Shown here: positions 36,613-58,304 of the stretch, piece after piece
Layout: each line of letters opens with the position of its first letter
Position numbering within the stretch: position 1 is the stretch's first letter
Source of the DNA: a virus
Lineage: Duplodnaviria; Heunggongvirae; Uroviricota; Caudoviricetes
Direction: 5' to 3' (one strand)
Virus record (IMG/VR): IMGVR_UViG_2974564184_000001
Coordinates: 977 to 64,976 of that record
Length of the DNA: 64,000 nt
Notes under the pieces: generated by a model
Told to the model about the DNA's origin: nothing
Databases searched by the model: none
Seen by the model: only the letters and a program-made list of their open reading frames with translations
Program-made: the position numbers and the translations under genes

Positions 36613-36820
36613 CAGTTTCTCCTGATTTTAGTCCGTCCAGGGCGATGGTCGTTTCACAACTATCACCGTATTCTTTGTGGAGACGGAGATAGTCCTCCGG
36701 CCCCGACCAGTCATTGTCCTTGGTTTTCCAACCATCTGCGAAAGCATCTTCAACGATGGTGATCAACTCCAGACGGGAGATGGTTATTTGGTCAGACAGG
36801 CTTACTTGCTTTGCAGACAT
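36602..36820 (-). CDS. hypothetical small protein
   Basis: 72-aa ORF. Confidence 0.35.
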   Translation of the reverse strand: MSAKQVSLSDQITISRLELITIVEDAFADGWKTKDNDWSGPEDYLRLHKEYGDSCETTIALDGLKSGETDVD

Positions 36821-37701
36821 GTTTTGCCCTCCAAGTGATCTTCAACCATCTTGATCAATTCAGGGTCACTGAACGCATCAACCGCGCCTTTATCCCAGTG
36901 TAAGATTCCAGCCTTGTCGAGGTTCTGCATGTCGCTTTTCGAGTAGACCGCACTGTTCCAATCGGTAGACATAGCTGCCTTCTGTGCCGCTTCTGCATTG
37001 TAGAGGTTAATTTCCACAACCTTCGCCCCCAGTTTCAGCTTGGGCTTCAACATATAGCGGAAGTCAATAACCTGCATCGAGCAACCAACGACCAGAATCA
37101 GATCCTGAGAGTTAATCGTGTAGCCAAGCTCGTACATATCATTGTACAGAGGCGCACTCTCTGAGAAGAATACCACATTTGGTTTCGCCCAGTGATAATC
37201 TTTCGGGTCAAAGTCTTCACCCGGAGCCAGTTCCAACATTTCTTCGTGGCCCATCGGCTTCTTGATCACACGCATCTCATTAAGGTAGCCGTGAACATGA
37301 ATGATATCATCCCGAGGAACACCTGCACGTTCCAGTAAGTCGTCAACGTTGGTTGTCAGATTGATAACTTGACCCGGGAAGCGATTGTACCACTCCGCCA
37401 CACGCAGGTGCGCCAGATTCGGGCCTACCGTAGGCAGTTCTTTACGACGCTTCTCGTAAAATTTATGCGTCAGATAGTACAGGTTCTCGCCAAAGGTGTT
37501 TGGCTGTTCCGAAACAGCGTTCGGAGGTGGATTTTCACTGTTACGGTGATGGAAACCCGCCTGGAAACCCGGGGCGTAGCACACATCGTCCAATGCGTAC
37601 TCATCCCAGAGCGCTTTTCCGCTATCCGTATCGGTACGGAAGGTACGGACTCCGCTCTCAGCGGAGAATCCAGCACCAGACACTACGATAAGGCGGCGCA
37701 T
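36802..37701 (-). CDS. Sir2-family (sirtuin-like) NAD-dependent protein
   Basis: VVSGAGFSAESGVRTFR (GAGISxxSGIPxFR), TTNVDDLLERAG (TQNIDxL), HVHG (HLHG). Confidence 0.8.
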   Translation of the reverse strand: MRRLIVVSGAGFSAESGVRTFRTDTDSGKALWDEYALDDVCYAPGFQAGFHHRNSENPPPNAVSEQPNTFGENLYYLTHKFYEKRRKELPTVGPNLAHLRVAEWYNRFPGQVINLTTNVDDLLERAGVPRDDIIHVHGYLNEMRVIKKPMGHEEMLELAPGEDFDPKDYHWAKPNVVFFSESAPLYNDMYELGYTINSQDLILVVGCSMQVIDFRYMLKPKLKLGAKVVEINLYNAEAAQKAAMSTDWNSAVYSKSDMQNLDKAGILHWDKGAVDAFSDPELIKMVEDHLEGKTCLQSK

Positions 37702-39939: not shown

Positions 39940-40139
39940 CTTTGTCTCCGTAATGAGAGATTTTTAATAAGGCGCATGGCTTCTTTCTTCGCCAGCGCCA
40001 TTTCGAGGTGGTCATCATACTGGTAGGTATCTTCCATGTCAAGCATCCAATACGCCTCTTCCAGGAAATGAACCACATTGTCCACATCAGGCTTAGTGGT
40101 GATCCGTTTTCGCGACGGGTTTGGACATTGCGATGTCAT
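39936..40139 (-). CDS. hypothetical small protein
   Basis: 67-aa ORF. Confidence 0.35.
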   Translation of the reverse strand: MTSQCPNPSRKRITTKPDVDNVVHFLEEAYWMLDMEDTYQYDDHLEMALAKKEAMRLIKNLSLRRQR

Positions 40140-40665
40140 ACGCCTCCTTCAAGGTCAGGACACGCCCATGCACATCCCAACCCACATCCAGAATGCGTCC
40201 AGGTGCGGAGTACGAACCATGACTATGACCATGAAGCATAACAGAACCGTGGTGGCACTTGTTCCACACCGCGAAAGGATAATGCGACATGACGACTTTG
40301 TTGCCTTCGATTTCCGTTTCCACATAGTCCGTGACTTCATGCCCATACTCCAGGAAGATTTTCCGAGTCAGACGGTGGTCATGGTTGCCACGCAAGAGGA
40401 TGATATGCCCATAAACCTGATCCAGGAATCGACGCAAGGCGTCTTCTGCCTTCTTGCCGTAGGCGAGACTCACATCCCCCAAATGGTAAACCGTATCACC
40501 CTGCTTCACTGTGCTGTTCCAGATCTTAACGATCCCAGCATTCATTCGCAGAACGCTTGCAGGGTCTGTCTTAGGCCCGTACAGGTCATAACGGTATTTA
40601 TCACATGATTCAAATCCCAAAATATTCTTATGGGAATCATGCGTATCCGACGTAATGTGGATCAT
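40093..40665 (-). CDS. calcineurin-like metallophosphoesterase
   Basis: SDTHD, GDVS..., LLRGNHDH, HGHSH metallophosphatase motifs. Confidence 0.75.
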   Translation of the reverse strand: MIHITSDTHDSHKNILGFESCDKYRYDLYGPKTDPASVLRMNAGIVKIWNSTVKQGDTVYHLGDVSLAYGKKAEDALRRFLDQVYGHIILLRGNHDHRLTRKIFLEYGHEVTDYVETEIEGNKVVMSHYPFAVWNKCHHGSVMLHGHSHGSYSAPGRILDVGWDVHGRVLTLKEAYDIAMSKPVAKTDHH

Positions 40666-41763: not shown

Positions 41764-41860
41764 AAAAAGAAACAACAAACCCCCTATAAGGTCTTTAAGA
41801 TCTTAAAGTCTTTTGTTTTTATGTTTTATAAGTTAGTTTAGATCATAAGTTAGTATTGTA

Positions 41861-41974
41861 TACCCGACCGGGAATAATTAGGTATACCCGATTGGGAATA
41901 ATTAGGAGTTGACAGGTGTTGGGATGAAGTGTAGGCTATGACCCTAAATATACCCGAGAGGGAATAAATAGGAG
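41861..41974. repeat. three 24-bp direct repeats TATACCCGA-NN-GGGAATAA-N-TAGG (two tandem, one 42 bp downstream) flanking a TTGACA box
   Basis: 41861-41884, 41885-41908, 41951-41974; third copy abuts the TAGGAGG RBS of gene 41980. Confidence 0.8.
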
Positions 41975-41979
41975 GGTGT

Positions 41980-42348
41980 GTGGAGATAAGGCTTGGGGAA
42001 TCCACAGTGCAGATCAGGAAAGGGGCATACCTTACTGTTCCAACTGAGTGGGTTTTCGATGAGAGACTCTCCCCGCAGGATTTGCAAAGACTGATGAAGC
42101 TGTGGTGGCGATATGATTACTTCAAAAGCCTTAACCCAAGTGCGGGTGAAGAAGTTTTCTTCCCGTCACAGAAATCGCTTTGCCAACTCTTCGGGTTGAG
42201 TGAAAAATCGCAACCTAAGGTTTCAGAATTCTTGAAAAGGATGGAAGACTTAGGGTACATTAAACGAATCAGGTCTGGGTTTGTCGATACATCGGGTAAC
42301 GCGAAGCCAAGACACTTCATAATTGTCAACAGAGGAGACAAAACATGA
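41980..42348 (+). CDS. winged-helix DNA-binding protein (candidate regulator/iteron-binding)
   Basis: GTG start 4 nt after TAGGAGG; SQKSLCQLFGLSEKSQPKVSEFLKRMEDLGYIKR resembles wHTH. Confidence 0.45.
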   Translation: MEIRLGESTVQIRKGAYLTVPTEWVFDERLSPQDLQRLMKLWWRYDYFKSLNPSAGEEVFFPSQKSLCQLFGLSEKSQPKVSEFLKRMEDLGYIKRIRSGFVDTSGNAKPRHFIIVNRGDKT

Positions 42349-43196
42349 ACAACGTAACACTTCAACTGAACAACTTACAGGTTCCTGTCAAACACTTCAC
42401 CTTCAACGGTGGTGAGGAACAGGTTGTTATCGACCAAGCAGCCTCCCCGAAAGGTCGTGTGGCCTACGTGGATATCACTGCAAAGCTGAAAAGCTCAATG
42501 GATGTTATGACCCTGGTTATGCTGACTGATGCCTGCCGTCACATCCACAACCTGGATGATTGTGCTCGTTTCACTCTGCATATGCCATACATCCCTTACG
42601 CTCGTCAAGACCGTGTGATGAACGCAGGTGAAGCTGCTGCGGTGAAAGCATTCGTGAACGTGATCGCGGGACTGAAATTCGACAAAATTGTTGTCGCTGA
42701 TCCGCATAGCGATGTTGCTACCAATCTGCTGGATAACATCGGTGCTCGCCTGGAGGTAATCTCTCAGGACACCTTGTTCTCTGAATATATGGGAAACACT
42801 GGTGAGATCAAACGCAACACTCGCATTTGCACCGTGGGGCGTGGTAATCCGGTAATCGTCGCCCCTGATGCAGGCGCTCGCAAGAAAGCCCAGAAGGTTG
42901 CTGACCGTTATGGTTTCCGAATTGTAGAGGCTGGAAAAGTTCGTGATGTCCGGGATGGTAAGATCACCGGAACTTCCGTTCATGATGATGTGACCGGACT
43001 TCCTTGTATCATTGTGGACGATATCTGCGACGGTGGTCGTACTTTCGTTCCGCTGGCGGCGGCTCTGAAAGAGAAAGGTGCAAGCCAGGTAATCCTGTAC
43101 GTTACTCACGGCATCTTCTCAAACGGTAAACAGTTTCTTCTCGACGCAGGTATTGAGCAGGTTCATGCCTATTATGACTGGAAGGAGAACTTCTGA
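42345..43196 (+). CDS. ribose-phosphate pyrophosphokinase homolog (PRPP synthetase-like; candidate ADPR-PP synthetase of NAD reconstitution pathway)
   Basis: PYARQDR, DPHS, IIVDDICDGGRT PRS-family motifs. Confidence 0.75.
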   Translation: MNNVTLQLNNLQVPVKHFTFNGGEEQVVIDQAASPKGRVAYVDITAKLKSSMDVMTLVMLTDACRHIHNLDDCARFTLHMPYIPYARQDRVMNAGEAAAVKAFVNVIAGLKFDKIVVADPHSDVATNLLDNIGARLEVISQDTLFSEYMGNTGEIKRNTRICTVGRGNPVIVAPDAGARKKAQKVADRYGFRIVEAGKVRDVRDGKITGTSVHDDVTGLPCIIVDDICDGGRTFVPLAAALKEKGASQVILYVTHGIFSNGKQFLLDAGIEQVHAYYDWKENF

Positions 43197-43288
43197 TGCT
43201 GCTGACAGCCTACCTTTTGTTTACCTTGGCCTTCATATCCGCACTCGGGGTAATCCTCGTCTGCAAAATTTTTAAAATTATCGCTTGA
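43196..43288 (+). CDS. 30-aa hydrophobic peptide
   Basis: ATGA overlap with PRS-like stop; MLLTAYLLFTLAFISALGVILVCKIFKIIA. Confidence 0.25.
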   Translation: MLLTAYLLFTLAFISALGVILVCKIFKIIA

Positions 43289-43314
43289 CAAGGCAGAACG
43301 TTAAAGCGTAAGAT
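43285..43314 (+). promoter_or_regulatory. sigma70-like promoter TTGACA-N18-TAAGAT
   Basis: upstream of NAMPT-like gene. Confidence 0.45.
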
Positions 43315-43369
43315 TATCGACATCGGGGACGACTTGTCCCCATTCAAAAATGCAAAGGAGAAAAATTTC

Positions 43370-45088
43370 ATGATTAATATGAACCCGCTTTTCGCAACTG
43401 ATTTCTACAAGCCGTCACATGCTGACCAGTACAATCAGAACAGCGAAGTAATCTTCTCGAACTTCACACCTCGTTCAGACAAACTGTTCCCACACTTCTC
43501 AGATGATGACCATCGTGTGGTTGTTGTCGGCACACAAGGTGTAGCGATTAACTTCCTGGTTGAATACTGGAATGACCAATTCTTCAAAAAACCGAAAAAC
43601 GAAGTGATCGGCGAGTACGTTGAAGAACTGAACCTGTCTCTGGGTATTCCGGTTGACAAAATTCGCACTGAACACATCGAAGCGCTGCATGATCTCGGTT
43701 ATCTGCCGTTAGAACTGCGTTCACTGCCGGAAGGTTCATTGGCCCCGGTACAAGTTCCGGTGTACACCATCCACAACACTGACCCGCGCTTCTTCTGGCT
43801 GACCAACTATTTCGAGACCGCTCTGTCGGCTGAGACCTGGAAGGTTATGAACAACGCAACTATTGCACACCAGTATTTCAAACTGTGCAAAGGTTTCAGT
43901 GACGAAACGTGTGATACTGCTGATCACTTGATGTTCCAGTGCCACGATTTCAGCTTCCGTGGTCTGAGCGGCATTGCGGACGCATACAAAAACGGCTTCG
44001 GTCACTTAACTTCTTTCTACGGTACTGATACCATCCCGGCAATTCGTTACGCTCGTCGTTACTACGGAATGCAGGGACAGTTCGTTGCAGGTTCAATCCC
44101 GGCATCTGAGCACAGTGTTGCAACAACAAACATCGGCGCGATTATCAAAAATCTGCTGAAAGACCCGAACTTCAAAGGTGCAACGCTGGACGAACTGCGT
44201 TATGCGGCTGAACTCGTGTTCTTGGAAAAGTACAGCACTGAAATTTATCCGAACGGATTGTGTTCGTATGTTTCTGACAGCTACGACTACTGGGCGGTTA
44301 TCCTGGCAATGCTGCCAGAGCTGAAAGATGAGATCATGGCTCGTGAAGGTAAGCTGGTAATCCGTCCAGACTCCGGTGACCCGATTCGCATCATTGCAGG
44401 TTATCGTTGGGTTGAACTGAAACAGTTCTCTGGCATCAATGCTGAGATGGTTCTGTTGCCAGGCGGCAAGTTCGTATCTTCTCGCGATATGTACGATGCG
44501 ATTCCTTGCGACGATACCCCGGTTGCTTATCACTTTGCGAAGCTGACCGAGGCGAATTTCAAAGAAGAGCAATTCGTCCCGGATCACATCGTGCATGGCA
44601 CCATTGAGTGTCTGTGGGATACCTTCGGTGGTCACCTGAACTCGAAAGGTTACCGTGTTCTTGATTCGCACATCGGCCTGATTTATGGTGACTCAATCAC
44701 TGTTGAACGTGCCAAAGCGATTATGCAGCGCCTGAAAGAGAAAGGTTATGCGTCAAGCAACATTGTGTTCGGTATCGGTTCGTACACTTACAACTACAGC
44801 ACTCGCGACAGCTTGGGCTTTGCATGTAAAGCGACTGGTTCCATCATCGCCGGAGAAGAAATCCTGGTGACCAAAGAGCCAAAAACAGACATGAAGAAAA
44901 AGTCTGCAAATGGTTTCCTGAAAGTGATCACCGACAAAAACGGTGTGTACAAACTGGTGGACGGTCTGAGCCTGGTAGACATCCAGGACGAGGATAATGA
45001 ATTAAAAATCATTTTCCGAAACGGTAAGCTGTACCGTAATACGACCCTGACGGAAATCCGTGAGCGTCTCATCGGACAGAAATCGTAA
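43370..45088 (+). CDS. nicotinamide phosphoribosyltransferase homolog (NAMPT/NadV-like; candidate Namat)
   Basis: AAGGAG RBS before ATG 43370; LFATDFYKPSHA N-terminal NAPRTase-family motif; 572 aa. Confidence 0.8.
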   Translation: MINMNPLFATDFYKPSHADQYNQNSEVIFSNFTPRSDKLFPHFSDDDHRVVVVGTQGVAINFLVEYWNDQFFKKPKNEVIGEYVEELNLSLGIPVDKIRTEHIEALHDLGYLPLELRSLPEGSLAPVQVPVYTIHNTDPRFFWLTNYFETALSAETWKVMNNATIAHQYFKLCKGFSDETCDTADHLMFQCHDFSFRGLSGIADAYKNGFGHLTSFYGTDTIPAIRYARRYYGMQGQFVAGSIPASEHSVATTNIGAIIKNLLKDPNFKGATLDELRYAAELVFLEKYSTEIYPNGLCSYVSDSYDYWAVILAMLPELKDEIMAREGKLVIRPDSGDPIRIIAGYRWVELKQFSGINAEMVLLPGGKFVSSRDMYDAIPCDDTPVAYHFAKLTEANFKEEQFVPDHIVHGTIECLWDTFGGHLNSKGYRVLDSHIGLIYGDSITVERAKAIMQRLKEKGYASSNIVFGIGSYTYNYSTRDSLGFACKATGSIIAGEEILVTKEPKTDMKKKSANGFLKVITDKNGVYKLVDGLSLVDIQDEDNELKIIFRNGKLYRNTTLTEIRERLIGQKS

Positions 45089-45105
45089 CAAAATCAATTA
45101 AATAA

Positions 45106-45127
45106 GCCCCTAAAGGGGCTTTCTTCA
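45106..45127 (+). terminator. Rho-independent terminator
   Basis: AGCCCC-TAAA-GGGGCT followed by TTTCTT. Confidence 0.6.
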
Positions 45128-46316: not shown

Positions 46317-46392
46317 CGTGCAGTAGCTCAGGCGGTAGAGCAGCATCTTCATACGGTGACGGTCGGTGGTTCGAGTCCACCTTGCACGACCA
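46317..46392 (+). tRNA. tRNA-Met/fMet (anticodon CAT)
   Basis: acceptor CGTGCAG/TTGCACG, D-arm GCTCAGGCGGTAGAGC, loop TTCATAC, T-arm GGTGGTTCGAGTCCACC, ACCA. Confidence 0.7.
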
Positions 46393-46422
46393 AGACGATT
46401 TGAAAAATAATTTAGAAATTGT

Positions 46423-46451
46423 TTGACAATGCCACACTGATAGCTTAGTAT
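46423..46451 (+). promoter_or_regulatory. consensus promoter TTGACA-N17-TAGTAT
   Basis: upstream of gene 46514. Confidence 0.6.
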
Positions 46452-46513
46452 GAGCATCGTTGAGACAGAGACCAGCAAGAATGCTGGAAAATTAATCCAA
46501 AGAGGAGAACAAC

Positions 46514-46855
46514 ATGACCAAGAAGAAAACCGCCCCTAAGAAAGTTTCTGCAATTGATGCAATCAAGCAGCCTTTCCAGTACGAGTCCAAAACGACTCAG
46601 ACACACTCTCCGGCGAAAGACGTTCGTTTGGGCGGTACAGTGAAAACTGTCTCTGTCCGTAAGAAGGCCCGTGATGAAGACGGTAATGTCGTATTCGTGT
46701 ACGAGTCGAAGTCTAACGTAGAAGGCGGTCAGGTTATCTCCGCATCACATCGTATCCGCACTGGCAAGACCAAGCGTGAGCGTAACGCCAAAGTGCGTGA
46801 AGTGGTTAAAGCCGCTCCGGTAGAAACCAAAGGTTCTGCCAAAAAGAAAAAGTAA
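46514..46855 (+). CDS. Lys-rich basic protein
   Basis: 113 aa, AAGAGGAG RBS, K/R-rich termini. Confidence 0.5.
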   Translation: MTKKKTAPKKVSAIDAIKQPFQYESKTTQTHSPAKDVRLGGTVKTVSVRKKARDEDGNVVFVYESKSNVEGGQVISASHRIRTGKTKRERNAKVREVVKAAPVETKGSAKKKK

Positions 46856-46864
46856 AACAATTTC

Positions 46865-46941
46865 GGGGTATTAGCTCAGTTGGTTAGAGTAGCCGACTCT
46901 TAATCGGTAGGTCGAAGGTTCGAGTCCTTCATGCCCCACCA
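46865..46941 (+). tRNA. tRNA-Lys (CTT)
   Basis: GGGGTAT...anticodon loop CTCTTAA...GGTTCGAGTCC...ATGCCCCACCA. Confidence 0.7.
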
Positions 46942-46943
46942 AA

Positions 46944-47160
46944 CAATGGGCTTTGGGAGTAGTGTTTAATTACGGGTGAGGAAACCCTGGCCCTCCAGCT
47001 TAGAGGGACACCACGTAGGGTTCGAATCCCTACCTCCGCCCACCAACCTTGAAATGAGAGAGATACGGGTTCGACTCCCGTTCTTGCTGGCCCGGCCTCC
47101 TGTAGTGGGACAGGGCGATAGCTTAAATGGAAGAAAGTGCTCTCATTTCAAACACTTAGA
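46944..47160 (+). ncRNA. tRNA-like degenerate region with two T-arm motifs and a 12-bp long-range inverted repeat
   Basis: GTAGGGTTCGAATCCCTAC...CCGCCCACCA and ACGGGTTCGACTCCCGT without clean cloverleaves; TTGAAATGAGAG (47049) pairs with CTCTCATTTCAA (47143). Confidence 0.35.
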
Positions 47161-47170
47161 GGAGAACAGA

Positions 47171-55019: not shown

Positions 55020-55110
55020 GGAGGAGCAAATCGAATGGCGACGAAAGCTGTCTTGAAAACAGTCGAGCGTGATGAGCGCCTTGGGAGTTCGACTCTCCCC
55101 TCCTCCGCCA
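55020..55110 (+). tRNA. tRNA-Ser (TGA)
   Basis: GGAGGAG...GCTGT-CTTGAAA-ACAGT, long variable arm, GGGAGTTCGACTCTCCC, CTCCTCC G CCA. Confidence 0.65.
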
Positions 55111-55126
55111 AACAACAGGGGGACTC

Positions 55127-55549
55127 ATGGAAAAACTCTGTTCTAAATGTGGTGAAACAAAGCTACTAACGGAATTTAACAAGAGTTCCAAACGTAAAGA
55201 TGGTGTCCAAGTATGGTGCAGACCTTGTACCAAGAGTGTGAATAATGAGAAGTACGCTACTGATCACACACACAGGTCAAGAATCAGGAAGAACAATGAG
55301 AAAGAAGTGCAGAAATGCAAAGACCTTCTCCTTGAGTTCAAATCTGTAGGCTGCACGTTGTGTCCTGAAAAGGAACCAGTCGCATTGGATCTTCATCATC
55401 TTGATGAAGAGACCAAAGATGCAAATGTCTCAGACCTTATGCGTCGAGGGACTAAGAAACTGATAGCAGAGATGAACAAGTGCGTTGTGTTGTGTGCCAA
55501 CTGTCACAGAAAGGTTCATGCTGGAATATTGGTGCTACCGGGTCGGTAG
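55127..55549 (+). CDS. HNH homing endonuclease
   Basis: LDLHHLDEETKDANVSDLMRR...LCANCHRKVH; lies inside tRNA cluster, 3' end overlaps next tRNA. Confidence 0.7.
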   Translation: MEKLCSKCGETKLLTEFNKSSKRKDGVQVWCRPCTKSVNNEKYATDHTHRSRIRKNNEKEVQKCKDLLLEFKSVGCTLCPEKEPVALDLHHLDEETKDANVSDLMRRGTKKLIAEMNKCVVLCANCHRKVHAGILVLPGR

Positions 55550-55615
55550 CCGAGCGGTCAGGCACCCGCCTTTTAAGCGGAAAGACGTAGGGTTCGAATC
55601 CCACCCGACCCACCA
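55540..55615 (+). tRNA. tRNA-Lys? (TTT) with Ser-like D-arm and weak T-stem
   Basis: GGGTCGG TA GCCGAGCGGTCAGGC A CCCGC-CTTTTAA-GCGGA ... GGGTTCGAATCCC ... CCGACCC A CCA. Confidence 0.4.
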
Positions 55616-55639
55616 ATTTGAAAATTAGTGAAAATAAGG

Positions 55640-55668
55640 CTTGCAGAAGATTGATTTCACTGATAAAG
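55640..55668 (+). promoter_or_regulatory. promoter TTGCAG-N17-TAAAGT (CTGATAAAGT family)
   Basis: upstream of tRNA-Asn. Confidence 0.45.
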
Positions 55669-55741
55669 TAATTACTCGATAGGGGAAAAGAGACGGCACT
55701 CTCCCTGTGACGCTGAAAGATGCAGGCCGACGAATACAAAT

Positions 55742-55827
55742 GACGAGGTGGTTCATCCGGTAGAACAGCGGACTGTTAATCCGCGAGCGAAAGCTCTATG
55801 TGGGTTCGAGTCCCACCCTCGTCGCCA
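55742..55827 (+). tRNA. tRNA-Asn (GTT) with 15-nt extra arm
   Basis: GACGAGG TG GTTC..GAAC A GCGGA-CTGTTAA-TCCGC GAGCGAAAGCTCTAT GTGGGTTCGAGTCCCAC CCTCGTC G CCA. Confidence 0.55.
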
Positions 55828-55832
55828 AATTT

Positions 55833-55907
55833 GGGAATGTGGCAGATTGGTAATGTACTCCACTGTCTATGGAGCCTATGCGAGTTCGATCCTCGTCATT
55901 CCCGCCA
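55833..55907 (+). tRNA. tRNA-Asp (GTC)
   Basis: GGGAATG...CTCCA-CTGTCTA-TGGAG...CGAGTTCGATCCTCG CATTCCC G CCA. Confidence 0.65.
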
Positions 55908-55971
55908 AAATTAGCAAGCCAGCGATACCAGTTTTAGAAATGCCTCTGGGACAATTAAAAGGCAAATATTT

Positions 55972-56048
55972 CGGAGTTTAGCTCAGTCTGGTAGAGCGCC
56001 TGGTTTGGGACCAGGAGGTCGTAGGTTCGAGTCCTGCAACTCCGACCA
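55972..56048 (+). tRNA. tRNA-Pro (TGG)
   Basis: CGGAGTT TA GCTCAGTCTGGTAGAGC G CCTGG-TTTGGGA-CCAGG...GTAGGTTCGAGTCCTGC AACTCCG A CCA. Confidence 0.75.
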
Positions 56049-56103
56049 ATAAGATTTATCGTGGGGCGATGGGTATTCAGTTAACCATGCGACGGTAAAT
56101 TCA

Positions 56104-56179
56104 TGGGGAATTAGCTCAGTTGGTAGAGCGTCTGCCTTGCACGTAGAAGGTCAAGAGTTCAAATCTCTTATTCTCCACC
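56104..56179 (+). tRNA. tRNA-Ala (TGC)
   Basis: GGGGAAT with G3:U70, loop CTTGCAC, AAGAGTTCAAATCTCTT, ATTCTCC A CCA. Confidence 0.75.
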
Positions 56180-56235
56180 ATAATGACGCCTGGGAAACTG
56201 ACATGTACGTGTCGTCTTCACTGGGCTTTTATTAT

Positions 56236-56311
56236 GCAGGTATAGTTCAACTGGACAGAGCATCAGCTTACGAAGCTGAGAATCGGGGTTCGAATCCCTG
56301 TATCTGCACCA
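56236..56311 (+). tRNA. tRNA-Arg (ACG)
   Basis: GCAGGTA...TCAGC-TTACGAA-GCTGA...CGGGGTTCGAATCCCTG TATCTGC A CCA. Confidence 0.7.
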
Positions 56312-56415
56312 AATGAAGGCTGGGATTTCTTCGTGACCTCAGCGTTAAAGAGTCCTCAAGCATCGCCTCGGCGGTGAGCTTCTCGGGTCGCACCCGGTTA
56401 ATGAGGCATTATTTA

Positions 56416-56500
56416 GGGCAAGTGGCGAAATTGGTAGACGCACCAGATTTAGGTTCTGGCGCAGAAATGTGTGAGAGTTCGAGTCTCTCCTTGCCCACCA
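56416..56500 (+). tRNA. tRNA-Leu (TAG), type II
   Basis: GGGCAAG TG GCGAAATTGGTAGACGC A CCAGA-TTTAGGT-TCTGG, variable arm, GAGAGTTCGAGTCTCTC CTTGCCC A CCA. Confidence 0.7.
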
Positions 56501-56508
56501 AACACCTC

Positions 56509-56584
56509 GGGGGTGTAACTCAGTTGGTAGAGTGCCTGTTTGAAGAACAGATGGTCACTGGTTCGAATCCAGTCGTCCCCACCA
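56509..56584 (+). tRNA. tRNA-Phe (GAA)
   Basis: GGGGGTG TA ACTCAGTTGGTAGAGT...loop TTGAAGA...ACTGGTTCGAATCCAGT CGTCCCC A CCA. Confidence 0.65.
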
Positions 56585-56686
56585 AACATTCTCTGTGATG
56601 CAGGTTCGACTCCTGTCAGGACGGCAAAGCCTTCGGGTGGCGAGGTCGTGTGCGTGATGTGGTTAACGGCAGAGAAGTCAAACAGT

Positions 56687-56768
56687 TGCGTGGTAGTGAA
56701 ACGGATATATAGATCATGTTGGCCTCATAAGCCGAAGATTGTGGGTTCGACTCCCACTCACGCATCCA
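56687..56768 (+). tRNA. tRNA-Met/Ile2? (CAT), 82 nt
   Basis: TGCGTGG...TTGGC-CTCATAA-GCCGA AGATT GTGGGTTCGACTCCCAC TCACGCA T CCA; D-arm could not be folded cleanly. Confidence 0.4.
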
Positions 56769-56811
56769 AAATTCTAATAATAATAATTCAAAATCTCCTC
56801 TCCTTTGCCTC

Positions 56812-56840
56812 GCCCCGCTCTTGCGGGGCTTTTCTTTTTC
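56812..56840 (+). terminator. Rho-independent terminator closing the tRNA island
   Basis: GCCCCGC-TCTT-GCGGGGC followed by TTTTCTTTTTC. Confidence 0.75.
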
Positions 56841-56879
56841 TGGTATCCTGTAAATCTTAAATGAATAAAGGAGACCACG

Positions 56880-58304
56880 ATGATCTACAAATACCCCCGA
56901 GATGACTTCCGTCGAGAAGCAAACATCTTACGCAGCTTCTTCCCGGCAGATGTCTACGGCGTATTGCAACGCCTGGATGCCATGATCGCGGGAGGTACGC
57001 TCACATCTCTTTTCTCAAACCGAGAAGTAAACGACCTCGATATCTATTTCCGGTCATGGGACGATTTGGAGATCTTCGTTGCGTATATGCACGACAAACA
57101 GCTCCTAAGCGGAGAGCATGACCTGACTGTTCACACAATGGGTTGGAACAAGTACAAGCGTACTTATCGTCGATTCAAGAAGTTGGATGGTATTGACTTG
57201 GCTACTCACCCATTCAAGATCGCAAGCACGAAATCAATCCGAGACCAACTGGATGGTTGCGCTCCAGAGGAAGGCGGAGAGGAAGTCTCACGTAAAATCC
57301 GCGAGATGTTTGGGATGATCAAGCCTTTTGATGAGACTGAGGATCATGCCTCGCACATCAAGATGGTTGGTATGACGGATAAGAGTGTGATGTACTCTAT
57401 GCAATCAGGCCCGGTAATGCAGGTGATTGGGTTCAGTGTCTTCGAGACACCAGAGGAGATCTTCGCCAAGTTTGATTACACGATCAATATGGGTGCTTTC
57501 TGTTTTAAGACAGAAGAGTGGCATGTGGATAACCAGTTCATGAAGCATTTAGCTCAGAAGGTGTTGGTTGTCAACCCAGCAACTGATTATCCAATCATCA
57601 GCCTCTTACGTGCTGCGAAGTACGAAGCCCGTGGCTACACAATCTCTCGCCGCGAGGCGATGAAGTTGGGTCTGGCTATGACCAAGTTGGAGATCTCTTC
57701 TTGGGAGGACGCCAAGAAACACCTGAGCGGAATGTACGGGACAAATGTTGAAACACTCTTCAATGAGGAAAGGCCGTTTTCATTTGAACTGTTATTTGAT
57801 AAACTGGACACTGCTGGTGAAAAAACAATCTCGATGATTGCCACTGACAAGGAGAAAGGTGATCGTGCCAAGATCAACCATATCTCTCTTGAGCCAGTTG
57901 GACAGTTCACGGTATTGAACACATTGCGCTACCATACAGGTCGCCCACATTACAGCAAGATGTGGGGAGTCTGCAAAAGCAAAGACTTCTACTTGCTTGA
58001 ACCAGAGAAGTCACGACAGAAGATTCACGTTGGCATGACCAATGTGGATAGTGACTTCCACCACCATGTGGAGCTTTTCTTTGACGAGGAAGACGCCCGT
58101 GGACGGTACGAGCAATTGGGGAAAAAGCCAATGGATGGTGGTGCAGTGCTGTTGCAGGTTGACATCCTCAATCTGAAACACCTTCATCAGAAAGACCACG
58201 ACACCGGGTCGGTAAACATGAACGTTAAAGGCGGTCACGTCAAACGTACTGAACCATCCGCTGTCATCCGCAAGTACATCGAAAGCAATGGAGATTTTAC
58301 GTGA
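56880..58304 (+). CDS. nucleotidyltransferase-fold protein of unknown function
   Basis: AAAGGAG RBS; IAGGTLTSLFSNREVNDLDIYF resembles hG[GS]-x9-13-DhD pol-beta NTase motif; 474 aa. Confidence 0.45.
   Translation: MIYKYPRDDFRREANILRSFFPADVYGVLQRLDAMIAGGTLTSLFSNREVNDLDIYFRSWDDLEIFVAYMHDKQLLSGEHDLTVHTMGWNKYKRTYRRFKKLDGIDLATHPFKIASTKSIRDQLDGCAPEEGGEEVSRKIREMFGMIKPFDETEDHASHIKMVGMTDKSVMYSMQSGPVMQVIGFSVFETPEEIFAKFDYTINMGAFCFKTEEWHVDNQFMKHLAQKVLVVNPATDYPIISLLRAAKYEARGYTISRREAMKLGLAMTKLEISSWEDAKKHLSGMYGTNVETLFNEERPFSFELLFDKLDTAGEKTISMIATDKEKGDRAKINHISLEPVGQFTVLNTLRYHTGRPHYSKMWGVCKSKDFYLLEPEKSRQKIHVGMTNVDSDFHHHVELFFDEEDARGRYEQLGKKPMDGGAVLLQVDILNLKHLHQKDHDTGSVNMNVKGGHVKRTEPSAVIRKYIESNGDFT

Follow-up and report, generated by a model that had tools for sequence, protein, structure and literature searches.

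We analyzed a 64,000-nt stretch of viral DNA (hereafter the window) and found that a four-gene locus within it is very probably the NAD+ reconstitution pathway 1 (NARP1) cassette of Erwinia phage Hena1, as judged from its sequence. The window is 100% identical to positions 977-64976 of the Hena1 record (MN732867 / NC_048828; Vequintavirinae, Henunavirus; genome 148.8 kb), and all four genes lie on its plus strand. The first, gp088 (41980-42348), has a GTG start and encodes a 122-aa winged-helix (wHTH) DNA-binding protein (phrog_8453) that is presumed to regulate the cassette. Its stop overlaps by 4 nt the start of gp089 (42345-43196; 283 aa), predicted to encode the PRPS-like ADP-ribose pyrophosphokinase Adps. 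The gp089 stop in turn overlaps by 1 nt (TGATG) the ATG of gp090 (43196-43288), a 30-aa hydrophobic open reading frame (ORF) of uncertain status. The last gene, gp091 (43370-45088; 572 aa), starts 174 nt 3' of gp089 and is predicted to encode the Nampt-like nicotinamide ADP-ribose transferase Namat. An earlier note on this DNA had placed the four ORFs at these coordinates and quoted motifs that are indeed present in the ORF listing: PYARQDR, DPHS and IIVDDICDGGRT in gp089, and LFATDFYKPSHA in gp091. Its favored assignment, a NARP1-type Adps and Namat rather than a Prs and NadV salvage pair, agrees with the signatures, scores, gene linkage and published tables described below.

In the proposed pathway, host defence (Thoeris, DSR1/2, SIR2-HerA, SEFIR and similar systems) would split NAD+ into ADP-ribose (ADPR) and nicotinamide. 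From what characterised homologs do, gp089 would move the beta,gamma-pyrophosphate of ATP onto the terminal ribose of ADPR, giving ADP-ribose pyrophosphate (ADPR-PP) and AMP, and gp091 would join ADPR-PP and nicotinamide to yield NAD+. We infer both activities by homology to characterised enzymes; the NARP1 references are those of phages Bas63, SPbetaL1 and ICP1 (bioRxiv 10.1101/2024.02.11.579819; PMC12774641; PMC13586617), with the Bas63 Adps validated in vivo and the ICP1 Adps validated biochemically.

The Hena1 enzyme pair is already in the published record. Osterman et al. (bioRxiv 10.1101/2024.02.11.579819) list gp089 as MN732867_00088 in Supplementary Table 1, with 'Namat within 10 genes: Yes', and gp091 as MN732867_00090 in Supplementary Table 2, as 'Adps-associated', and counted 859 NARP1-carrying phage genomes in the INPHARED release of May 2023. 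Since Hena1 was already counted among these carriers, the locus adds nothing new as NARP1, and the enzyme pair found here is a correct rediscovery. What is undescribed is the regulation, a lineage-specific wHTH and operator switch, along with the co-occurrence of NARP1- and NARP3-type modules. GenBank and RefSeq name gp089 'ribose-phosphate pyrophosphokinase' and gp091 'nicotinamide phosphoribosyl transferase'; these names are functionally misleading and should be replaced with Adps and Namat.

Several comparisons support the assignment of gp091 as a Namat. Its product matched the NAPRTase (PF04095), NF006629 and phrog_448 profiles, and its best PDB matches were the SPbetaL1 Namat chains 9w5x/9w5w (1e-127), compared to ~1e-48 to 1e-53 for human and Xanthomonas Nampt. 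Using phmmer, gp091 scored 440, 416 and 377 bits against the Namats of Bas63, phage K and ICP1, respectively, and 171 and 120 bits against NadV proteins. A tblastn search of 50,697 phage records gave a bimodal result, with ~37-52% identity in phages that have an adjacent PRS-like gene and only 26-29% identity to T4-like NadV genes. In a neighbor-joining tree, the Namats, including gp091, and the NadV proteins formed separate groups.

Residue-level comparison gave the same picture. The selectivity clamp of Namat was defined in the SPbetaL1 structure (PMC12774641). At the SCH motif, gp091 aligned as GSYTYNYSTRD, the published Namat signature, alongside GSYTYQYMTRD in Bas63, GSYTYQYVTRD in ICP1 and GSFSYQFNTRD in phage K. 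NadV-type outgroups have GGGLLQQSDRD (Vibrio phage K571) or GGGLLQEVTRD (coliphage RB16) at this position, together with a shorter SCL loop; the gp091 loop is of Namat-like length. The gp091 core residues D11, Y13, F194, R197, D220, H248, R332 and D334 occupy invariant alignment columns and also align in the PDB comparison, the reference being SPbetaL1 Namat D13, Y15, F189, R192, D215, the catalytic His, R306 and D308.

Some further features of gp091 were noted. A start at the upstream TTG at 43334 was considered and rejected; the ATG at 43370 has AAGGAG 9 nt upstream and agrees with the database start. Two insertions, at residues ~255-280 and 345-406, extend the protein by ~80 residues relative to the Namats of SPbetaL1 and ICP1, and at the second site the insertions of Bas63, Ro1 and FENT2 differ in length and sequence. 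The PDB chain 9ke8_A, deposited as 'Nicotinamide phosphoribosyltransferase', matched gp091 at 3.6e-119 and reads GAQTYQRNTRD at the SCH position; that this chain might be the ICP1 Namat was ruled out by alignment.

The partner enzyme, gp089, matched Pribosyltran_N, Pribosyltran, Pribosyl_synth, TIGR01251 and phrog_619. It passed only the broad TIGR01251 subfamily model and fell far under every NCBIfam Prs equivalog cutoff (e.g., 105 vs 296 bits), while phmmer gave 133 bits against Bas63 Adps, 110 against ICP1 Adps and 70 against E. coli Prs. Among the PDB chains searched with gp089 there was no Adps structure, the top matches being cellular Prs (2.8e-18), and with no solved Adps in that copy of the PDB the comparison relied on published residue lists (PMC13586617). 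In the ICP1 Adps structures, R87, H121, D161, D212 and D213 are the acceptor residues, Lys185 is catalytic, the PP loop (Cys215-Ser220) is remodelled and holds the ATP donor, and the C-terminal alpha11-alpha12 module of Prs is lost (PMC13586617). In our alignment, gp089 keeps the equivalents of ICP1 F18 (as F20), R87, H121, D161, K185, D212 and D213, with the Lys in GKVRD. Its PP loop matches that of Bas63 Adps exactly (DDICDGGRTFV); the corresponding sequences are DDICDGAASF in ICP1 and DDMIDTGGTLC in E. coli Prs. At 283 aa, gp089 stops ~40 residues short of E. coli Prs (315 aa) and lacks the C-terminal alpha11-alpha12 module, and the ICP1 and Bas63 Adps are likewise short (280 and 293 aa).

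Several observations weigh against a NARP1 assignment of this pair. The equivalent of ICP1 Phe92 is Met in gp089, as it also is in Bas63. In the neighbor-joining tree of Adps with Prs, a single Prs served as outgroup and the deep nodes had 13-35% support; because of this, membership of gp089 in the Adps clade rests on the signatures and the published tree. Identity to the Bas63 enzymes is only 37% (Adps) and 44% (Namat), and the activities of the Hena1 proteins are predictions. Finally, Namats are recognized at the SCL loop by Arg, Lys or Tyr at the third position together with an adenine-stacking residue. In gp091, Lys38 is kept and is followed by Leu39, in place of the Trp of Bas63 and the Tyr of ICP1 and phage K, which makes the auxiliary adenine-stacking contact tentative. 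Phe40, directly after Leu39, may supply the contact instead.

The enzymes could also be read as a classical salvage route resembling NARP2, in which gp089 would be a true phosphoribosyl pyrophosphate (PRPP) synthetase, gp091 a NadV/Nampt making nicotinamide mononucleotide (NMN), and a distant gene, gp186, would supply the NMN adenylyltransferase (NMNAT) that converts NMN to NAD+. The database annotations as Prs and Nampt would fit this route, as would the presence of an NMNAT-domain protein in the Hena1 genome and the ability of characterised Namat to retain, in vitro, about half of the PRPP-dependent NMN synthesis of human Nampt (PMC12774641). However, gp091 carries the Namat SCH motif rather than the GGGLLQ of NadV and groups with the Namats, and gp089 has a Bas63-type PP loop, no Prs C-terminal module, and failed all Prs equivalog cutoffs. 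The homologous SPbetaL1 Adps gave no product in a Prs-type activity test, yet makes ADPR-PP from ADPR and ATP. In addition, gp186 lies beside a PnuC gene more than 50 kb away, as part of a separate NARP3 module, and is not an NMNAT-Nudix NatV; ICP1, with proven Adps activity, also carries a NadR-like gene. We therefore regard salvage as very improbable.

The earlier note had taken the lack of an NMNAT as favoring NARP1. None was found in the window, where the annotation has a tRNA nucleotidyltransferase and an RlaP-type enzyme as the only nucleotidyltransferases, but the argument is invalid because Hena1 encodes gp186 elsewhere (record 99018-100106, minus strand), a NadR-like protein with a cytidylyltransferase-like NMNAT domain (residues 6-153), an AAA_28 ribosylnicotinamide kinase (RNK) domain (173-333) and no helix-turn-helix (HTH) domain. 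The same note had held that an NMNAT elsewhere in the genome, together with a PRS homolog using ribose-5-phosphate, would make this ordinary salvage; gp186 supplies the first of these. It leaves NARP1 standing, because the Adps and Namat signatures are independent of any NMNAT and because ICP1, whose Adps is proven to make ADPR-PP, has a NadR-like gene as well (38% identity and 97% coverage to gp186). The presence or absence of an NMNAT is thus uninformative for the NARP1 call.

Two genes from gp186, with a 141-aa gene between, lies gp188, a PnuC transporter, and the whole module spans record positions 97875-100106 on the minus strand. Over its full length, gp186 is 35-37% identical to NadR-like genes of T5-like phages, and homologs at ~60% identity occur in other phages with a wHTH-NARP1 arrangement, such as Klebsiella phage K23PH08C2. 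Given the NARP3 architecture of these genes, Hena1 appears to carry two NAD+ reconstitution pathways, NARP1 and a NARP3-type NadR/PnuC module. It could rebuild NAD+ from ADPR and nicotinamide and from nicotinamide riboside, and possibly from a third input, PRPP and nicotinamide, through the Namat side activity and the NMNAT of gp186.

We then considered how the cassette may be controlled. The divergent intergenic region at its 5' end is 271 nt long and carries a 26-nt unit three times (at 41859, 41883 and 41949), each time with an 18-bp imperfect palindrome, TATACCC-N4-GGGAATA. These candidate operators are O1 (41859-41876; TATACCC-GACC-GGGAATA), which keeps its position in phages Ro1 and FENT2; O2 (41883-41900; TATACCC-GATT-GGGAATA), which starts 24 nt after O1; and O3 (41949-41966; TATACCC-GAGA-GGGAATA). 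O2 ends 8 nt before the -35 element of a putative rightward promoter (41909-41937, plus strand), composed of TTGACA (41909-41914), a 17-nt spacer and TAGGCT (41932-41937). O3 lies ~12 nt 3' of the -10, in the gp088 leader and just 5' of the ribosome-binding site. The motif has 3 matches in the window, compared to 0.09 expected by chance, and no further copy was found in the 148.8-kb genome with up to 2 mismatches allowed. The three-site layout is kept in Ro1 and FENT2, where successive sites start 24 and 59-60 nt apart (in Hena1, 24 and 66 nt). At 41828-41854 (plus strand), in the AT-richest part of the junction (30% GC), ATAAGTTAGT forms a direct repeat, its two copies 17 nt apart; this pair is also kept in Ro1 and FENT2, and ATAAGTTAGT occurs as two exact copies only in the Hena1 genome. 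The earlier note had described a wHTH/iteron control region. Both the wHTH gene and the repeats exist, but what the note called iterons fit better as three palindromic operators placed around a conserved promoter.

The promoter was called from its match to consensus and from its conservation: TTGACA and GTGTAGnnT are invariant in the Hena1, Ro1 and FENT2 alignment, while the spacer sequence varies. A sigma-70 scan of the region found 7 promoter-like sites, compared to 5.0 in shuffled sequences, and a terminator scan found 5, compared to 3.9. Since neither was enriched, our promoter and terminator calls rest on cross-phage conservation. On this basis, a sigma-70-type rightward promoter at ~41909-41937 would drive the cassette.

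The protein likely to act on these sites was described by the earlier note as a 122-aa winged-helix protein heading the operon, and structural prediction bears this out. Pfam searches with gp088 gave only sub-threshold HTH matches (HTH_5, E 3.6e-4), and its AlphaFold2 model (pLDDT 86) comprises a beta-hairpin, a long helix, a helix-turn-helix and a two-stranded wing. Foldseek matches to the model were uniformly winged-helix (TFIIE, DnaD-N, AbfR2, NolR and the AraR DNA-binding domain). Their probabilities were close to 1, but the E-values were no better than 0.01, leaving no match at E <= 0.001. The predicted structure supports the fold class and leaves a regulator undistinguished from a DnaD-like protein.

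In a different reading, gp088 and the repeats would form a replication module, in which gp088 would be an origin-binding protein (DnaD- or initiator-related) and the repeats and AT-rich tract an origin beside NARP1. Residues 13-100 of gp088 match the N-terminal domains of the PHROG families 'DnaD-like helicase loader' and 'replication initiation protein' (E 1.5e-6 to 7e-4), and the DnaD N-terminal domain 2v79 is among the top Foldseek matches, although the regulators AbfR2, NolR and AraR score about equally. At only 122 aa, gp088 has no C-terminal domain of the helicase-loading or initiator kind. The tract beside the operators is AT-rich (30% GC) and has additional direct repeats, and the cumulative GC skew has its minimum at ~40-42 kb; because that turn coincides with the switch in gene orientation, it is no independent evidence for an origin. 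Each operator repeat is itself palindromic, which suits a dimeric operator better than a directional iteron, and the repeats bracket an invariant -35/-10 pair, with O3 in the transcribed leader of gp088 itself. We consider a replication module unlikely.

The gp088 family is very small: it forms 18 homolog clusters among 5.8 billion proteins and occurs in 74 phage records, all from Enterobacterales phages with hosts including Klebsiella, Escherichia, Salmonella and Pectobacterium. In each case whose coordinates allowed a cross-check (Ro1, FENT2, KNP2, CR3, K54_rec1, F1M1E, Av-05, TH18 and a 138-kb metagenome contig), the homolog was directly 5' of Adps-Namat in the same orientation. Ro1 and FENT2, which share the operators, are 75-81% identical to Hena1 in gp088, 59-60% in Adps and 54-55% in Namat. 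In the congeneric Erwinia phage pEp_SNUABM_01, Adps and Namat are 71% and 87% identical to those of Hena1 and the wHTH only 21%, and the TATACCC-N4-GGGAATA sites of its junction are replaced by a different repeat, with the palindrome TGCTCAA-T-TTGAGCA. This co-variation, the most telling observation on the switch, suggests a specific regulator-operator pair that is exchanged as one module between relatives.

Most likely, gp088 would bind O1, O2 and O3 as a dimer and so autoregulate the cassette, with O3, positioned 3' of the -10, predicted to act as the repressing site. The wHTH-Adps-Namat unit is probably an autoregulated cassette operating through the predicted operators. Two considerations count against this part of our interpretation: we infer the regulatory model in its entirety, and the linkage of the wHTH gene with NARP1 could merely reflect gene order inherited within one phage subfamily. 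In Ro1 and FENT2, an extra gene of ~188 aa, absent from Hena1, lies between the wHTH gene and Adps. It encodes a further winged-helix protein, whose C-terminal region is T5orf172/MUG113-like and which gives weak, sub-threshold matches to the Pfam family 'wHTH-PRTase associated' (PF24409).

The spacer between the two enzyme genes contains additional candidate elements. A promoter-like site at 43285-43314 (plus strand) consists of TTGACA (43285-43290), 18 nt and TAAGAT, its -35 overlapping the gp090 stop codon in Hena1, and a GC-rich hairpin, GGGGAC-GACTT-GTCCCC, follows in the Namat leader (43325-43341, plus strand). TTGACA was present in the Adps-Namat spacer at all five Vequintavirinae-type loci, and the spacers of pEp_SNUABM_01, Ro1 and FENT2 each contain a GC-rich palindrome of differing sequence. 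These features suggest a second, internal promoter and a structured leader for Namat, which would probably receive extra expression from this promoter. A search of the leaders for riboswitches and known RNAs identified no Rfam family, the sole match being a chance snoRNA (E 0.5).

The 30-aa hydrophobic peptide that the earlier note had placed between the enzymes is present as gp090, but is confined to two Henunavirus phages. Its only positional counterpart, in pEp_SNUABM_01, is a 52-aa hydrophobic ORF with the same 1-nt overlap, and no counterpart was found in Ro1, FENT2, the metagenome contig, Bas63 or ICP1. Because these loci lack it, gp090 is not a general NARP1 component. Probably it either specifies a small membrane peptide peculiar to this lineage or has no function, and takes no part in the pathway.

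Downstream of Namat, an intrinsic-terminator-like hairpin (45104-45126, plus strand; AAGCCCC-TAAA-GGGGCTT-TCTTC) starts 16 nt after the stop codon. An equivalent hairpin and T-run follows Namat in 7/7 loci (Hena1, pEp_SNUABM_01, Ro1, FENT2, metagenomic contig L015, Bas63 and ICP1), while the terminator scan flagged the Hena1 hairpin on the minus strand only. With this conserved element after Namat, the stretch from wHTH to Namat looks like a discrete transcription unit, and the control region, called 'private' in the earlier note, earns that description in part.

The terminator also bears on the possibility that the wHTH and operators control the whole rightward block (small ORFs, tRNA array and late genes), or act as an early/middle switch, and are not private to NARP1. 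Because the strand switch is followed first by gp088 and then by more than 20 kb of co-oriented genes, such a role is conceivable; O1 and O2, lying between the divergent blocks, could also affect a leftward promoter-like site at 41762-41735. However, the hairpin and T-run close the unit right after Namat at every locus compared, the operator motif is found nowhere else in the genome, and the wHTH family is confined to loci in which Adps-Namat come next. Broad control is, in our view, a rather unlikely explanation. Both this reading and the replication module concern the switch only and are not alternatives to the NARP1 enzymology.

Collectively, these findings lead us to propose, tentatively and as a possibility still short of a favored conclusion, that NARP1 in the Vequintavirinae may be a self-contained, autoregulated anti-defence unit, in which gp088 would tune Adps and Namat through three operators in an Aca-like manner, as a swappable module. 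A bolder extension is that gp088 might sense a metabolite related to NAD+, for instance ADPR or NAD+ itself. The NARP publications that we consulted describe no such regulator, and the wHTH and operator module would lend itself readily to a test of how transcription of a metabolic anti-defence operon is controlled.

Other genes around the cassette were also examined. A Sir2-family protein (PF02146, E 7e-19) is encoded by gp077 (36802-37701, minus strand), ~4 kb from the cassette, and the metagenomic relative L015 has a Sir2 gene about equally far away; a potentially NAD+-consuming enzyme in an NAD+-restoring phage is curious. The gene gp084 (40093-40665, minus strand), a few genes leftward of the divergent junction, encodes a calcineurin-like metallophosphoesterase that is conserved at that place in Hena1, Ro1, pEp_SNUABM_01, FENT2 and the metagenome contig. 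We considered gp084 as a NARP1-associated phosphatase and rejected it: it is calcineurin-like and on the opposite strand, and Adpp, the phosphatase associated with NARP1, has a Macro domain. The RNA ligase and polynucleotide-kinase-like genes that adjoin gp084 make an RNA-repair set its more likely context. An array of 26 annotated tRNAs begins ~1.2 kb 3' of the cassette (~46317-56770; record 47293-57744) and includes a 108-nt 'tRNA-TERM / tRNA-sup(tca)' (record 50338-50445), unusually long for a tRNA. Hena1 is a phage of the fire-blight pathogen Erwinia amylovora, and with both NARP1 and a NARP3-type module it is predicted to withstand NAD+-depleting host defences, a point that matters for its use in biocontrol.

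Compared to known systems, the Hena1 locus shares a Nampt-fold enzyme and the purpose of restoring NAD+ with NARP2, represented by NadV and NatV of KVP40. NadV of NARP2 differs in that GGGLLQ..RD replaces the aromatic SCH motif and the SCL loop is shorter; it is only ~31% identical to gp091 and has no Adps partner. NatV is an NMNAT-Nudix protein, whereas the Hena1 NMNAT is NadR-type and unlinked, and Hena1 does not show the features that define NARP2. NARP1-AP consists of NARP1 with a Macro-domain ADPR-1''-phosphatase, Adpp, within two genes (bioRxiv 10.64898/2026.01.28.702374), and its Adps and Namat core is common to Hena1. No Macro-domain match was found in gp088, gp090 or the flanking ORFs of the Hena1 operon, so Hena1 has plain NARP1 rather than NARP1-AP, and the lack of Adpp predicts sensitivity to aRES-type NAD+ cleavage.

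NARP3 pairs the NadR-like Bas30_86 with the PnuC protein Bas30_87 (PMC13464706). The Hena1 genes gp186 (NMNAT and RNK, no HTH) and gp188 (PnuC) share this architecture, with an extra gene between the components, and constitute a pathway separate from NARP1 at 97.9-100.1 kb of the record. For the regulatory part, the closest parallel is with Aca-type HTH autorepressors, small HTH proteins of anti-CRISPR operons whose palindromic operators overlap their own promoter, as proposed here for gp088. There is no sequence relationship between Aca proteins and gp088; Aca is encoded by the last gene of its operon and gp088 by the first, the cargo here is metabolic, and binding by gp088 is only predicted. 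The closest enzymatic parallel, NARP1 of coliphage Bas63 (JohannRWettstein genes 79-80) and of SPbetaL1 and ICP1, has Adps and Namat in the same order as Hena1, likewise with a terminator after Namat. Hena1 differs from it in the SCL residue after Lys, which is Leu rather than aromatic, and in the 30-aa ORF between its enzymes. The records of Bas63 and ICP1 show neither the wHTH gene nor the three operators upstream of NARP1, whereas Hena1 and other Vequintavirinae carry both.

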